Shown piece by piece: positions 7,805 to 40,394 of a stretch of DNA of 46,671 nucleotides. The notes under the pieces are model-generated. The model was not told the DNA's origin and did not search any database. It was given only the letters and a program-made list of their open reading frames with translations. The stretch lies in UHGV virus genome UHGV-0040636. One strand, 5' to 3'. The first letter of the stretch is position 1, and each line of letters starts with the position of its first letter. The position numbers and the translations under genes are program-made. This DNA comes from a virus.

Positions 7805-8265
7805 GCCACAACTCCGCCAGCATCCTTGTATACCTGAATCAGCTTATCCAGTTTCTGCTCATGCTGACCATAGCCAGCGCCCGGCAGTGAGGCCCAGCGG
7901 GAGCGGCATTTATGGATGGCATCAGCAATTCGACCAGCTTCAATGTCGGCAGTAGCCTTGCATTCATGGATTAGTTGCATTGCAATGGCGTCCTGCGATG
8001 CAGGAGAAAAGTCCGGCAAACGCAACTGCTTTTTGTACGCGTCATAAAACTTAGCCAGCACCTGATAGCGTCCGGCGGCAGTGGATTTGATGCCCAGCTT
8101 TGGCAGGCTAATCAGCTTGCGTGGGTGGTCGGAATAATCAGTAAACAGTGAGCCGCCAACAATCACATCATAACCATGATTATTGGTTTTCTGTCGCCCG
8201 TTATCCGTACCCTCGCTGTACGCCAGCATATCCAGAAACGCCTTCATGTTTTTGCTAATAGCCAT
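7801..8265 (-). CDS. R: phage lysozyme/transglycosylase, lambda R-like
   Basis: Start refined to ATG at 8265 (AAGAGG RBS). KAFLDMLAYSEGTDNGRQKTNNHGYDVIVGGSLFTDYSDHPR...ASLPGAGYGQ is near-collinear with the lambda R sequence recalled from memory (KAFLDMLAWSEGTDNGRQKTRNHGYDVIVGGELFTDYSDHPR...ASLPGAGYGQ). Confidence 0.85.
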   Translation of the reverse strand: MAISKNMKAFLDMLAYSEGTDNGRQKTNNHGYDVIVGGSLFTDYSDHPRKLISLPKLGIKSTAAGRYQVLAKFYDAYKKQLRLPDFSPASQDAIAMQLIHECKATADIEAGRIADAIHKCRSRWASLPGAGYGQHEQKLDKLIQVYKDAGGVVA

Positions 8266-37107: not shown

Positions 37108-37137
37108 TTGACACCTGCTAGGTGGTGATGTAGATTC
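37108..37137 (+). promoter_or_regulatory. sigma70-like promoter TTGACA-N17-TAGATT containing the recurrent element
   Basis: TTGACA 37108..37113, TAGATT 37131..37136. GTGATGTAGATTC at 37125..37137. Drives the plus-strand moron embedded in the tail module. Confidence 0.6.
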
Positions 37138-37366: not shown

Positions 37367-37506
37367 ACGAACAGACAAAAGCGGACCTGATTTTCTACAC
37401 TGAGCTGTATGTTGATGCAGGTTACGACTACGAAGAAGCTGAACGAATGGCGAAAGACTTACTCCGCGTGATTGGTGTGATTTTTGATGAGGATAAGGTG
37501 ATATGA
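37363..37506 (+). CDS. hypothetical small acidic protein (47 aa)
   Basis: ATGA coupling on both sides. Below the ORF-track cutoff. Confidence 0.35.
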   Translation: MNEQTKADLIFYTELYVDAGYDYEEAERMAKDLLRVIGVIFDEDKVI

Positions 37507-37859
37507 AAAATTATGAAGATATGAGTGATTCACAAATAGCGCAAAAGGTTTTCTTTTTTGTGAGTAGCAATCTTTGCCCAAACGGAGGGTTAGCTCACAT
37601 CAGTTCAGATGGATTCTTCTTTTTTGATGACAAAAATATTAAGAGGAAGTTTGACCCATGCAATAATCCAGAAGATGCTGAGCCTATTATTATTGAAAAC
37701 AGAATTGGCACTATTCCAGCACCAGATAATGGATTGTGGAAAGCTGCGCACAGAAAGATTGGCAATGATGATACGCCATACTATTTTACTCAAGACAAAA
37801 ACCCACTACGCGCTGCCATGATTGTATTTCTAAAAATGAATGAGGATAAGGTGATATGA
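37503..37859 (+). CDS. DUF2591 (lambdoid NinX-like) protein
   Basis: C-terminal NPLRAAMIVFLKMNE and the central CNNPEDAEPIIIENRI match the NinX/DUF2591 signature (NPLRAAMICFL) as recalled. Confidence 0.55.
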   Translation: MKNYEDMSDSQIAQKVFFFVSSNLCPNGGLAHISSDGFFFFDDKNIKRKFDPCNNPEDAEPIIIENRIGTIPAPDNGLWKAAHRKIGNDDTPYYFTQDKNPLRAAMIVFLKMNEDKVI

Positions 37860-38056
37860 GTAAGTGGATTAAGTGTAGTGAGATGCTGCCTGGAAATGGG
37901 TGTACTGATAAGGAGTTCCTGGTGTATGAAACGTTGAATAACGCAGTTCAGCATGATTATTACATTGTCCCTGACGACGAGAGAAAGCCATTCTGGAATC
38001 ACTATAGTAAGTACGTGACTCACTGGATGCCACTACCTGAGCCACCACAAGAATAA
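37856..38056 (+). CDS. DUF551 phage protein
   Basis: MSKWIKCSEMLP...VTHWMPLPEPPQE matches the DUF551 pattern (WI.CSERLP...THWMPLPEPP). Confidence 0.6.
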   Translation: MSKWIKCSEMLPGNGCTDKEFLVYETLNNAVQHDYYIVPDDERKPFWNHYSKYVTHWMPLPEPPQE

Positions 38057-38057
38057 A

Positions 38058-38088
38058 ACAAAGCCCCTTTCGGGGCTTTTTCTTTATC
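38058..38088. terminator. bidirectional rho-independent terminator
   Basis: AAGCCCC-TTTC-GGGGCTT followed by TTTCTTTAT. Ends the moron and the leftward major-tail transcript. Confidence 0.7.
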
Positions 38089-38803
38089 AGGATACGGTGC
38101 ACGCCGTGCTGATAATAATCTCCGGGTCAGTAGATGAGTCAGTTACCGTGACGGTATATACGCCAGCGGTTGGACTTGCCAGAGACGCGCCAGATTCACC
38201 ACTAACTACCGCGCCGTCTTTGCGCCATACATAAGTGTAAGGAGCAACGCCACCTTCAACAGCAACAGTTAACGGACTGCCAGCACTGCCAGTTGATTGC
38301 AGGTCGGTAGTGAATGCCAGAGGTTCAAGGCTTTCGACGGTAACGCTGTCAGAATCGTAAACCTTAAACTCAAGGCTGCCAGTCACGATGTCGTTCGTGC
38401 CACCTTCGTAGCTGATGCTGGTAATGTTGCAATACGCGGTAACGATAGTTGCACCAGTAACCTGACGCACCCACAAAGAAGGCTGGCGACGTGCTTTCAG
38501 TTCAGTGGCGTAAATCTCAACCAGACGATGGAAGCCAAACTCATCGCTTGGGTCATTTTTGCGGATTTCCACTTCTGCACTGATGGTCATATCAGAGCTG
38601 GTAACGAGAGTGGAAACAAAGCCGCCAGCGGTATCAGCTTCCGACGTGGTGGTCTGCGGTGAGTAGTCAACGCCTTTACTGGTGGTTGAGCCTAAATACT
38701 TCCAGTCTTCTGCATCCGGAACTGCGTCACCGCACCCTTCAGCAAGGAACAGTCGGGTCATACGACCGACCAGAACGCCTTTATCATTTGCACAAATAGC
38801 CAT
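38087..38803 (-). CDS. major tail protein with C-terminal Ig-like (Big_2-type) domain
   Basis: 238 aa. The C-terminal 80 aa (GSPLTVAVEGGVAPYTYVWRKDGAVV...GVYTVTVTDSS) is a typical bacterial Ig-like domain, as on lambda V-type tube proteins. Followed by a strong terminator. Confidence 0.65.
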   Translation of the reverse strand: MAICANDKGVLVGRMTRLFLAEGCGDAVPDAEDWKYLGSTTSKGVDYSPQTTTSEADTAGGFVSTLVTSSDMTISAEVEIRKNDPSDEFGFHRLVEIYATELKARRQPSLWVRQVTGATIVTAYCNITSISYEGGTNDIVTGSLEFKVYDSDSVTVESLEPLAFTTDLQSTGSAGSPLTVAVEGGVAPYTYVWRKDGAVVSGESGASLASPTAGVYTVTVTDSSTDPEIIISTACTVS

Positions 38804-38854
38804 TTCGATCTCCGAATTGTGTTAGCTGCTAACGTGGTGATTATACCACAGGTG

Positions 38855-38884
38855 TTGACAGTGATTATTTTGTGGTGTAGATTG
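38855..38884 (+). promoter_or_regulatory. sigma70-like promoter TTGACA-N17-TAGATT facing a non-coding stretch
   Basis: TTGACA 38855..38860, TAGATT 38878..38883. TGGTGTAGATTG copy at 38873..38884. Confidence 0.55.
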
Positions 38885-38889
38885 TATTT

Positions 38890-39364
38890 CAGATGGTTTT
38901 CGCGAGCGACTTTGCGGACTTTTTAGAAACTGACCACAAAGATAAATGCAAACGATGATGTTGTTCTGATGGCGGCGTAACAGCCTGTAAGTCAGCAAGG
39001 TCTTCCGATTCCTTGTAAACAAATTCGGCGCACTGCGTCCCTGAGGTGTGATTAATAAGTCAGGGAACATAACAGGTAAGAGCATTGGCGCATATCAGCG
39101 GAACTCGAACCCATTGCGCAGGCGACACAGACGTGTGTTTCAGTGCTCTTGCCGTTGTGGTTCTTAATAGTTCGCCTGTGTAAATAGCGTCCGTAGTTGG
39201 AATAACGGAAGTGGCAAGCAACATCGGCAACCACAACACTTAATATCCAGCGTTATCGCAATCATATGTAGGGGTATGTATGGGTTACGGGGCTGGATAT
39301 TAAGAAAGCACGCTGGCAATGCTTAAACCAGTAATAAGGCCGCCAAGTGCGGCTTTATTTATTT
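38890..39364 (+). ncRNA. candidate non-coding transcript (~460 nt) between promoter 38855..38884 and terminator 39336..39364
   Basis: No plus-strand ORF longer than 21 codons. Contains a 13-bp perfect inverted repeat CTTAATATCCAGC/GCTGGATATTAAG (39239..39304) and ends in GCCGC-CAAGT-GCGGC plus TTTATTTATTT. Confidence 0.35.
39336..39364. terminator. rho-independent terminator (strong on plus strand; possible attenuator for the leftward tail operon)
   Basis: GCCGC-CAAGT-GCGGC followed by TTTATTTATTT. Overlaps the stop codon of the 39359..39775 gene. Confidence 0.55.
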
Positions 39365-39775
39365 CACAACCCGCAAAAGCAGCTCATGCACAGGTCTCTT
39401 CTCTTCCGTTAACATCGGCCTACCAAGTGGCGCTTGCAACTGGATGTAGTTCACGCATGAATCAATCGGATGTGTCTTGATGTATTCGATAATCTCATTG
39501 GCCTTCGCATCAACATCAGCCACGTTATACTGCCCATGTTTGCCAACAACATACAGAGAGAAATAGAAATCACCGCCGAGTCCATCCATAACCTGCGTAC
39601 CGCCATTGGATTGCAGGACAATAAATTGCTCATTGCCGTCTCCGGTGTCATTCCAGAACTGCAACTGCGAAGTCCATCCATCATACAATCCAGCATCCTG
39701 AAGATATGCATCAACCAGCTCAAGCATGTTCATATTAAACCCCAATATTGCAATATCGATGCACATATCATACAC
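39359..39775 (-). CDS. tail terminator / tail completion protein (putative)
   Basis: 138 aa. Position between the HK97 gp10-like gene and the major tail protein, interrupted by the HNH insertion. Confidence 0.4.
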   Translation of the reverse strand: MYDMCIDIAILGFNMNMLELVDAYLQDAGLYDGWTSQLQFWNDTGDGNEQFIVLQSNGGTQVMDGLGGDFYFSLYVVGKHGQYNVADVDAKANEIIEYIKTHPIDSCVNYIQLQAPLGRPMLTEEKRPVHELLLRVVK

Positions 39776-39902: not shown

Positions 39903-40394
39903 ATGATTTCAGAGCGGGATTACATAGCAATCGCGTCAAGAGTTAAATACGACCCGATTACCGGATTGTTCATCTGGGCTGTAAGTTGCGGGAAAATATC
40001 AAAAGGTGATATTGCAAATTATCACAACGACGCAGGATACATAACACTTGGGAAGAAAAGATTAAGGGCGCACCGAGTGGCTTGGTTTATCCATTATGGA
40101 TATGTCCCTGAGCATGAAATTGATCACATAAACAATATTCGTGATGATAATAGAATTTCAAATCTGAGGGAGGCCAGTGACTGCGAGAACGCAAGGAACA
40201 CAAAGATATCTAAATCAAACACGTCTGGATATAAAGGAGTTCATTTTTGCAAGTACACGGGGAAATGGAGAGCCACGGTAAAGATGCATGGGAAAAGCTA
40301 TCATCTTGGTAGGTTTTCAGACAAAGAAGCCGCCCATAAAGCCTATTGCAAAAAAGTAGATGAACTGTTTTTGGAGTTCGCAAACCACGGCTAA
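39903..40394 (+). CDS. HNH homing endonuclease with C-terminal AP2 domain
   Basis: YITLGKKRLRAHRVAWFIHYGYVPEHEIDHINNIRDDNRISNLR is an HNH_3-type core (H...N...N). SGYKGVHFCKYTGKWRATVKMHGKSYHLGRFSDKEAAHKAY is a typical AP2 domain. Lies on the opposite strand to the flanking structural genes. Confidence 0.75.
   Translation: MISERDYIAIASRVKYDPITGLFIWAVSCGKISKGDIANYHNDAGYITLGKKRLRAHRVAWFIHYGYVPEHEIDHINNIRDDNRISNLREASDCENARNTKISKSNTSGYKGVHFCKYTGKWRATVKMHGKSYHLGRFSDKEAAHKAYCKKVDELFLEFANHG

Follow-up and report, generated by a model that had tools for sequence, protein, structure and literature searches.

Among the tail genes of the virus genome UHGV-0040636, a stretch of 46,671 nucleotides that is referred to here in its entirety as the window, lies a gap (38804-39358) between two minus-strand tail genes, and the question that this locus raises is what its plus strand encodes. 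The window is the genome of a siphophage whose kin include Escherichia phage Sa179lw (Buchananvirus), Salmonella phage STGO-35-1 (Caminolopintovirus) and many Salmonella, Escherichia and Shigella phages. A preliminary description of the gap proposed a non-coding unit that runs from a strong promoter to a terminator around a perfect 13-bp inverted repeat, and offered as possible roles a regulatory or antisense RNA, a protein-binding DNA site, or a degraded gene. Here, we describe a computational analysis of this unit and of its relatives. We present evidence that the 5' part of the unit belongs to an RNA family which is, as judged by comparison with known RNA models, derived from transfer-messenger RNA (tmRNA) and lacks the tRNA-like domain, and that the leader of this RNA is, by alignment, complementary to the tmRNA of the host beyond chance. 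Tentatively, these features suggest a phage RNA that would pair with host tmRNA and replace the template for the peptide tag.

A tmRNA-like tag domain at the 5' end of the unit

The widely conserved and most informative part of the unit, which the preliminary description had not singled out, is its 5' domain (38893-39066). The leader of this domain is followed by a resume context, a short tag frame, a hairpin that holds the stop codon and resembles helix 5 of tmRNA, and two H-type pseudoknots that resemble pseudoknots 2 and 3 (PK2 and PK3) (Table 1). The structure of the RNA, the composition and distribution of its family, the conservation of the tag frame and the complementarity to tmRNA described below were computed directly. 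In an alignment of 39 diverse sequences, 89.9% of the cells at the proposed pairs are paired, versus at most 45% when the partners are slid, and changes on both sides of a pair occur in 135 cells, versus at most 29 with slid partners; none of 500 shuffles matched the observed values. The two helices of the PK2 analogue are paired in 97% and 100% of cells, with changes on both sides in seven of nine pairs, and an invariant G.U pair in the PK3 analogue fixes the strand of the RNA as plus. The preliminary description had suggested looking for covariation across homologous copies, and compensatory changes were indeed found both in the helices of the 5' domain and in the 13-bp stem considered below. 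Its proposal of a regulatory non-coding RNA is thus borne out by strong base-pair covariation, by G.U pairs that are workable only on the plus strand, and by a conserved promoter and terminator belonging to the unit itself.

The tag frame comprises 10 codons in every copy of the family (126 copies counted, with 33 distinct open reading frames [ORFs]). The commonest tags are ANDDVVLMAA, ANEEMYLAVA, ANDEQFLAVA, ANDNVFLAVA and ANDDLMLMAA; for comparison, the E. coli SsrA tag is ANDENYALAA. Variation among the 33 ORFs falls mostly at third codon positions. Single-step neighbours differ by 15 synonymous changes versus nine non-synonymous ones, most of them conservative; the last codon is always GC followed by any of the four bases (GCN), and TAA, TGA and TAG are all present as stops. 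That a stop is retained and that the unpaired codons 4-6 change synonymously suggests translation of the tag. Like the frame of tmRNA, it lacks a start codon.

A search of the region against Rfam, another of the checks proposed earlier, returned no tRNA and nothing above threshold. The only near-matches were to the tmRNA_permuted and beta_tmRNA models, both aligned exactly at the resume and tag region, with E-values of 0.0024 and 0.0034 for the window and of 0.0023 and 0.0031 for the related locus L050. The window scored 28.2 bits with tmRNA_permuted against a gathering threshold of 47, and 18.4 bits with beta_tmRNA against 84; as positive controls in the same tool, E. coli ssrA scored 295.8 bits and the viral contig L076 scored 117.7 bits. 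These matches and the shared layout are the grounds on which we consider the family to be derived from tmRNA. The window RNA is, on its predicted structure, not itself a tmRNA, since it lacks an acceptor stem with G3:U70, a T-arm, a CCA end, P2 and pseudoknot 1 (PK1). ARAGORN identified no tRNA or tmRNA in the window at its default or at an 85% threshold, the Rfam tRNA model identified no tRNA in the window, and a search of the window unit for T-loop hairpins yielded none. The acceptor-like stems of two modules in the 3' part of the RNA (modules A and B, described below) have G3:C70 and U3:A70, so that G3:U70 is absent from both.

Protein coding on either strand was considered as a candidate and rejected, there being no conserved ORF and only one match to a protein family, a PHROG of 46 amino acids. 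This family, PHROG 26260 (function unknown), matches, at 38939-39064, the 87-aa minus-strand ORF that is antisense to the conserved tag and pseudoknot region and has no Pfam match. PHROG 26260, like the 'hypothetical proteins' that several GenBank records place at this locus, is probably an artefact that arose when ORFs were called across a conserved RNA gene. The preliminary description had taken the minus-strand ORFs for low-complexity noise; they are not conserved, and the 87-aa ORF is interrupted in about one third of the family members. It had also stated that the plus strand has no ORF over 21 codons, which does not hold, although the region is still poor in ORFs: a 39-aa ORF (39048-39167) is the longest that starts within 38890-39318, and a 53-aa plus-strand ORF (39319-39480) begins at the 3' end of the unit and exits through the terminator.

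The leader is predicted to pair with host tmRNA

The leader (38893-38938) is almost invariant in the family. Its predicted target in tmRNA extends from the 3' half of PK1 through the linker and the resume codon (G90) to the sixth tag codon. For SsrA nt 68-106 the reverse complement reads TAGTTTTCGTCGTTTGCGACTATTTTTTGCGGCTTTTTA, to which the window leader gives the gapped match GTTTTCG-CG--AGCGAC-----TTTGCGGACTTTTTA. Watson-Crick local alignment of the window leader to the ssrA reverse complement gave a score of 32 (z 6.7; 0 of 200 shuffles). Most of the 38 distinct leader types reach z values of 5 to 10 at the same ssrA site, and three of them (L018, L077 and L051) only 2.5-3.4. Family scores range from 31 to 43, versus a background of 546 windows in 100 kb of E. 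coli DNA, none of which exceeded 28; against the score of 32 for the window leader, the highest background value was 25. Among the leader types are the divergent ones of FelixO1-like phages and of a Rosenbergiella prophage, which retain different blocks of the same tmRNA target.

RNAduplex joins the leader to E. coli tmRNA by 38 bp at -44.1 kcal/mol, and RNAcofold, in which pseudoknot energies are ignored, keeps the intermolecular helix with a ddG of -12.6 kcal/mol. Leader positions paired with tmRNA are somewhat more conserved than unpaired ones (0.81 versus 0.67, p = 0.02), and a site at which the leader tolerates insertions is an interior loop of the leader-tmRNA duplex. The complementary bases are host-specific (GUC-GC and GAC GAA AAC) and differ from the tag region of the phage itself. 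From -1.5 to +2 kb, the range searched, the conserved leader with its invariant GCGACUUUGCGG has no cis partner. By eye the leader had first been suspected to be a homologue of the 5' part of tmRNA (an analogue of the D-loop, P2 and PK1); sense alignments to E. coli, L076 and L093 were at chance (z about 0), and this candidate was rejected. An antisense RNA, one of the roles listed in the preliminary description, is what the unit appears to encode, its complementarity being to host tmRNA and its target not the neighbouring tail genes.

The RNA family in enterobacterial phages

The 5' ~180 nt of the unit belong to a family that is annotated neither in phage records nor in RefSeq E. coli genomes, nor found above threshold in Rfam. 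Searches by blastn with the 5' 75-200 nt retrieved 595 phage records at 75-89% identity, the match lying nearly always in unannotated DNA. Carriers are otherwise unrelated and include HK620, P1, Vi01-like Ackermannviridae, N4/G7C-like and FelixO1-like phages, and siphophages of Klebsiella and other hosts; the phages come from many unrelated families, and all of the hosts are Enterobacterales. Of 5426 complete E. coli genomes, 650 carry the family, at 548 places on plasmids and 150 on chromosomes, and it is never annotated there. A pattern scan of IMG/VR gave at least 120 loci. Among 185,579 bacterial species representatives there were seven true matches, all of them prophage-like and in Enterobacterales, and 19 chance matches inside genes; none of the seven is the tmRNA of the cell, and the candidate explanation that the tag domain is some bacterium's own tmRNA was rejected.

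The domain occurs in varied genomic contexts, invariably on the strand of the neighbouring tRNAs. HK620 and lambdoid prophages carry it with pR'/qut (or the Q gene) on one side and the late terminator or the holin gene on the other. In HK620 itself (L005, 938-1645) it occupies most of the ~600 nt between qut and the late terminator tQ, and would therefore belong to the short constitutive pR' transcript. P1 (L006, 1090-1275) carries the domain right after the terminator-like hairpin of an annotated 'dicF-like region', downstream of the C1-repressed ban promoters and upstream of tRNA-Asn and tRNA-Thr. SUSP2 has it within a tRNA array and under a TTGACA promoter of its own. In the Vi01-like locus L089 a match to Rfam STnc100 (48.7 bits versus a threshold of 47) is found at 1118-1331 on the minus strand, among tRNA genes; the tag domain is on that strand too, ~0.8 kb upstream of the match. 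Across 20 related loci only tRNAs, Sib, STnc100 and int-alpA exceeded Rfam thresholds, and none of these lay over the tag domain. The recently described small RNA of lambdoid prophages, svsR, was compared and set aside, as it occupies a different locus, at the 3' end of cI.

This variety of contexts bears on the remaining roles that had been proposed earlier. A local cis-acting or antisense regulator of the tail genes would be in keeping with a unit that is antisense within the tail cluster, whose transcription would collide with late transcription, and with a terminator hairpin that could act bidirectionally; yet the same domain is found in the lambdoid late leader, in the P1 ban operon and in the tRNA arrays of large myoviruses. 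These contexts speak equally against a DNA site for packaging or partition, which is further contradicted by covariation that is strand-specific and at the level of RNA. The covariation likewise argues against a degraded protein gene, for which the hypothetical proteins of some GenBank records might be cited; the minus-strand ORFs are not conserved, and relatives have no intact protein gene here and plus-strand tRNA genes instead. We consider this group of explanations extremely improbable.

A candidate hybrid of phage and host RNA

An arm over the host template, followed 12 nt on by a complete replacement template, is most simply read as one half of a hybrid, two-piece tmRNA. On this reading, which we favour while holding it tentatively, the arm would anneal to host tmRNA and mask the host tag template, with the intermolecular helix replacing PK1. 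The phage resume codon, 12 nt past the arm, would take the position of the host's. Host tmRNA would give the alanine-charged tRNA-like domain together with SmpB, and the phage RNA would give the resume codon, the tag and the stop, so that rescued ribosomes would add the tag specified by the phage and terminate on phage RNA. Synthetic oligonucleotides complementary to the tag-template region of E. coli tmRNA block trans-translation and prevent the release of stalled chains in cell-free systems and ribosome display (PMC3384345), and pairing in this region of tmRNA should therefore be at least effective. Transcription of the unit, pairing in vivo, translation of the tag and a benefit to the phage are all inferred.

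The same leader-tmRNA complementarity is shared by the main rival explanation, a pure inhibitor or decoy. Here the arm would block the template or direct a cut by RNase III, the tmRNA-like part would serve only as a decoy for SmpB, ribosomal protein S1 or RNase R, or be an evolutionary leftover, and in either case trans-translation would be off during infection with no phage tag added. Such an RNA would need no unusual ribosome geometry, and its action would parallel that of the synthetic oligonucleotides, which suppress trans-translation in vitro at this part of tmRNA (PMC3384345). However, a fixed frame of 10 codons with mostly synonymous or conservative changes, whose stop is kept as TAA, TGA or TAG, is then unexplained, as is the intact resume context 12 nt past the arm in every member. 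Moreover, a template blocked without a substitute would trap ribosomes on tmRNA and should harm phage translation too. We regard the inhibitor or decoy, in either form, as unlikely.

Several points weigh against the hybrid tmRNA. The whole case is computational. The duplex energy of the window leader is only modestly apart from background (-44.1 versus a best of -42.0 kcal/mol in 546 windows), the energies of the FelixO1-like, L018/L077, L051 and L116 leaders are weak (-23 to -29 kcal/mol), and the alignment scores of L018, L077 and L051 are the weaker ones given above; in addition, the leaders share descent and are hence not fully independent tests. Conservation of the tag codons partly overlaps helix 5, including the GC of the last codon, and could to that extent be due to RNA structure. 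Passage through the ribosome may not be possible with an intermolecular helix of 38 bp on tmRNA, or RNase III may simply cut this helix, and the gain from exchanging one degron-like tag for another is not obvious. Finally, tRNA-like B modules with true T-arms beside the tag domain in some relatives leave room for a self-contained mechanism there. In a wider form, the hybrid tmRNA would make this a 'tag-swap' RNA of many enterobacterial phages (P1, HK620, Vi01-like, N4-like and FelixO1-like phages and this siphophage), in which rescue continues with a tag of the phage's choosing, such as ANDDVVLMAA or ANEEMYLAVA and not ANDENYALAA; we think this generalization possible and rather doubtful.

Architecture of the transcription unit

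The features of the unit are collected in Table 1. The promoter of the preliminary description is present, its hexamers being invariant and its spacer variable in five relatives, and it predicts an RNA start at ~38890. The terminator is also as claimed: its hairpin is conserved in relatives, with changes in the loop only, and it is located after the tRNAs where these are present. A terminator scan listed the hairpin on the minus strand only, and the plus-strand call rests on the T-run read directly from the sequence. The hairpin is followed by TTTATTTATTT on the plus strand, the corresponding tail on the minus strand being CTTATTACTG; its stem is extended to 11 bp in the minimum free energy (MFE) fold, and the element (39339-39364) may be bidirectional.

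Table 1. Coordinates of features in and beside the plus-strand unit.
Feature	Position	Strand	Basis
Major tail protein gene	38087-38803	-	PHROG 853
Sigma-70 promoter, TTGACA-N17-TAGATT	38855-38883	+	10/12 consensus matches
Predicted arm, antisense to E. coli SsrA nt ~57-106	38893-38938 (46 nt)	+	Duplex energy and alignment to ssrA reverse complement
Resume context GAUAAAU, directly 5' of the resume codon	38941-38947	+	UAAAU-GCA invariant in 39-sequence alignment
Tag frame GCA AAC GAT GAT GTT GTT CTG ATG GCG GCG TAA (ANDDVVLMAA and stop), no start codon	38948-38980	+	
Stop-codon hairpin, helix 5 analogue	38966-38995	+	All four outer pairs with compensatory changes, e.g. G:C 19 versus A:U 17
H-type pseudoknot, PK2 analogue, CAAGG/CCTTG crossed by CCGA/TCGG	38996-39028	+	Covariation
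H-type pseudoknot, PK3 analogue, CGCACU/GGUGUG crossed by UCCCUGA/UCAGGGA, conserved loop AUUAAUAA	39029-39066	+	RNAalifold and covariation
Module A, helix CAUAAC-A-GGUAAGAGCAUUG / CAGUGCUCUUGCC-GUUGUG closing a hypervariable interior	39068-39159	+	Helix in MFE fold
Module B, helix GUUGUGGU / ACCACAAC closing a variable interior	39154-39237	+	42 versions
Perfect 13-bp stem with 40-nt loop	39239-39304	+	In MFE fold; lineage-specific
Small hairpin AAGCA/UGCUU, loop CUGG able to pair with downstream CCAG (possible pseudoknot)	39306-39331	+	Read from sequence
Intrinsic terminator GCCGC-CAAGU-GCGGC and U-run	Hairpin 39339-39353, element to 39364	+	Flanked by A-tract
Tail terminator protein gene	39359-39775	-	PF23842

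With its own promoter and terminator and an orientation opposite to the flanking tail genes, the unit has the features of a moron. Relatives carry plus-strand tRNA genes (tRNA-Ile or tRNA-Met, or tRNA-Ser and tRNA-Arg) between the conserved 3' block and the terminator, within the same promoter-to-terminator unit and opposite to the tail genes; the window and Sa179lw have the complete unit of promoter, RNA and terminator without any tRNA. Alignment of relatives reveals three zones, namely a highly conserved 5' block, two hypervariable stretches within conserved helices, and a conserved 3' block, a pattern that is the hallmark of structured RNA. Compared with shuffled sequence, the full RNA has the more stable fold (z -2.87), and its MFE fold includes the conserved helices. 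The unit from 38890 to 39364 would thus be an independently transcribed gene for a structured, non-coding plus-strand RNA of ~470 nt, a proposal that, taken jointly with the exchange of tags set out above, we put at somewhat short of an even chance.

A twin of the promoter, TTGACA-N17-TAGATT, is found at 37108-37136 (+), and the two share the flanks GATTATAxCA upstream and GGTG before the -10 hexamer; this promoter type has two matches in the window versus 0.01 expected from shuffles. The twin points into small plus-strand genes, including a NinX-like gene (37503-37859) and a DUF551 gene (37856-38056). This arrangement suggests that a phage-specific class of promoter may drive rightward 'moron' units. 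Overlapping the promoter of the unit, on the minus strand and facing the major tail gene, is a weaker promoter-like site, CTGAAA-17-AATAAT (38864-38892, 9/12 matches), and the two may be divergent, overlapping promoters. Between the convergent small plus-strand genes and the major tail gene lies a symmetric hairpin, AAAGCCCC-TTTC-GGGGCTTT (38060-38079, both strands), with T-runs on either side, which looks like a bidirectional terminator. Further along, an ORF with HNH_3 and AP2 homing-endonuclease domains (39903-40394, +) is situated inside the minus-strand block of head-tail genes; no such gene is listed there in annotated relatives.

The 3' modules and the 13-bp hairpin

The 3' 290 nt of the RNA consist of modules A and B, the 13-bp hairpin and the small pseudoknot-like hairpin. 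These parts are probably accessory elements, common to phage tRNA loci, that act in folding, processing or stability. Module A exists in 72 distinct versions with a conserved closing helix, G.U variants included, and unrelated interiors of 20-180 nt, which are hypervariable even among close relatives. The module B interior of the window (39139-39239) is 96% identical to that of an unrelated myovirus, Escherichia phage ECO1230-10, in which modules A and B lie between two terminators without a tag domain (L010, 1090-1300), so that the cassettes move between phages independently of the tag domain. Within the variable module A interior of locus L050, beside the tag domain, sits a hammerhead-like motif, CUGACGAG...CGAAAC...GUC (7921-7967, -), which matches Hammerhead_1 at a sub-threshold 24.7 bits (E 0.0014); the same module occurs in L082, L105 and L123.

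The inverted repeat of the preliminary description (39239-39251 and 39292-39304) is as stated, 13 nt that are 100% complementary. No other perfect, non-palindromic inverted repeat that is 13 nt or longer and falls within 120 nt exists in the 46.7 kb of the window. Among 12 distinct copies in relatives, all changes keep plus-strand pairing, with U:A replaced by C:G in three and U.G or G.U wobbles in three others; the hairpin block is confined to ~140 close relatives. The small hairpin that follows is conserved among relatives, one of which breaks a pair, and the tRNA genes of relatives begin 5-10 nt past it.

A decayed tmRNA with tRNA debris in a slot for mobile tRNA cassettes, or a processing scaffold or leader for the tRNAs of relatives, would fit several of these observations without any function of its own: in relatives the unit serves as a slot for tRNAs, ECO1230-10 has modules A and B but no tag domain, the interiors are hypervariable, and the window has lost the tRNAs. 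Nevertheless, the window and Sa179lw keep promoter, full RNA and terminator with no tRNA to serve, the compensatory changes are strong and the tag frame is under constraint, and a 180-nt domain persists at 75-89% identity in phage families that otherwise share nothing. A relic or scaffold is therefore, in our estimation, quite improbable.

Tagging by an autonomous phage tmRNA is another explanation on which module B bears. In this case the tag domain would work together with module B of the same transcript, which would be aminoacylated and enter stalled ribosomes without host tmRNA. Relatives lend it some colour: in them module B can be tRNA-like, with a D-arm-like hairpin, an anticodon-like arm, a true T-arm (GCCGG-UUCGAUU-CCGGC) and an acceptor-like stem, and ARAGORN, once its threshold is lowered to 85%, reports a tmRNA with the tag ANDDVVLMAA in both L088 and L092; genuine two-piece tmRNAs, moreover, exist on the viral contigs L076 and L093. 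In some members T-arm-like hairpins abut the 3' strand of module B, whereas module B of the window has no T-arm and ARAGORN remains blank there even at the relaxed threshold. The G3:U70 pair that confers alanine identity is present in no family member examined, members are not consistent in having a 3' CCA behind module B, and the tag domain lies outside, not inside, the tRNA-like module. In the N4-like short forms the pseudoknots are followed by one further helix and then a terminator, and nothing tRNA-like comes after the tag domain. The antisense arm would also be left unexplained. An autonomous tmRNA is thus conceivable for some relatives only and not for this window, and overall we deem it highly improbable.

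Parts resembling tRNA are seen in the interiors of both cassettes, in module B of L088, L111, L092, L019 and L068 and in module A of L018, L029, L053, L066 and L087. They comprise a D-arm-like hairpin, true T-arms directly against the closing helix, and an arm (5-bp stem, 7-nt loop) whose pairs covary from AUCGG/CCGAU to AUCAG/CUGAU; some interiors are cloverleaf-like mimics of tRNA. Modules A and B were also searched for a CCA end present throughout and for alanine identity, and neither was found.

Discussion

An RNA derived from tmRNA that lacks the tRNA-like domain and is directed against host tmRNA appears, from the comparisons made here, to be a new identity. tmRNA is among the most conserved bacterial RNAs and a current antibiotic target, and some phages depend on host tmRNA. 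If the proposed hybrid is true, hundreds of enterobacterial phages, and 12% of complete E. coli genomes, would hold a new layer of phage control over the quality control of host translation; the hybrid would be the first natural trans-acting re-programming of trans-translation, and a natural precedent for a tmRNA split into a host acceptor and a foreign template. Two of the carriers, P1 and HK620, are textbook phages in which the RNA is unannotated. Some defence systems carry SmpB-like domains predicted to bind tmRNA (PMC11090510), and an anti-tmRNA phage RNA may help explain their presence.

Censuses of tmRNA list phage tmRNAs only in mycobacteriophages and Bacillus phage G, in addition to the form in mycobacteriophage DS6A described below (PMC4131195, PMC11915505). 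In the literature, of which our coverage is incomplete so that an earlier description is possible, we found no account of a tmRNA-like, message-only or anti-tmRNA RNA of phages.

A close parallel to the 5' domain is the one-piece tmRNA (SsrA, RF00023). Both have the resume context AUAAAU-GCA and a 10-codon tag that starts with AND and ends with a hydrophobic residue, then Ala or Val, then Ala. In both, a hairpin of the helix 5 type holds the stop codon in its loop, and two H-type pseudoknots follow. In contrast to one-piece tmRNA, the phage RNA has no acceptor stem, G3:U70, T-arm, CCA end, P2 or cis PK1, and a segment directed against host tmRNA stands in the place of PK1. It is also encoded by a phage, rather than being the cell's own rescue RNA, and scores far below the Rfam thresholds.

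Two-piece (permuted) tmRNAs of Betaproteobacteria and some phages (RF04321 and RF01850) are the best-scoring models, and their resume codon and tag start, UAAAUGCAAACGAU, are identical to those of the window. The layout of PK2 and PK3 after the tag, including the GAUUAAUAA loop, is shared with the two-piece tmRNA of L076, and the principle of a coding RNA joined by base pairing to a separate acceptor RNA would be the same. In two-piece tmRNA, however, both pieces come from one gene, and the coding piece has a 5' acceptor strand (GGGG...); neither that strand nor an acceptor piece is present in the window, where a search upstream of the tag domain encountered a promoter instead. The proposed partner of the phage RNA is the complete host tmRNA, reached through the antisense arm. 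The genuine two-piece tmRNA genes that we observed on the viral metagenome contigs L076 (9121-9453) and L093 have a T-arm and CCA, the GGGG... strand and then the tag, which is ANDTAWALQA in L076 (the 117.7 bits given above were obtained with tmRNA_permuted) and ANDNFAPSDYALAA in L093.

The large ornate non-coding RNAs GOLLD and ROOL are likewise found in phage genomes, often beside or around tRNA genes and with variable inserted modules. They differ from the present family in having no tag frame and no known complementarity to tmRNA, and neither gave an Rfam match here even at an E-value of 10.

The antisense arm resembles the synthetic anti-ssrA oligonucleotides in being complementary to the tag-template region of tmRNA, and a commonly used one presumably covers the same stretch of tmRNA as the phage arm. 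Unlike the arm, these oligonucleotides are man-made DNA without a replacement template; the phage arm is broken by small loops and reaches into PK1. The final comparison is with mycobacteriophage DS6A, which encodes a mini-tmRNA consisting of the tRNA-like domain only and thought to interfere with host trans-translation (PMC4131195, PMC11915505). Both RNAs are phage-encoded fragments of tmRNA. The DS6A form, however, has no tag frame, whereas the window RNA would represent the complementary half, a message-like domain to which an antisense arm has been joined.

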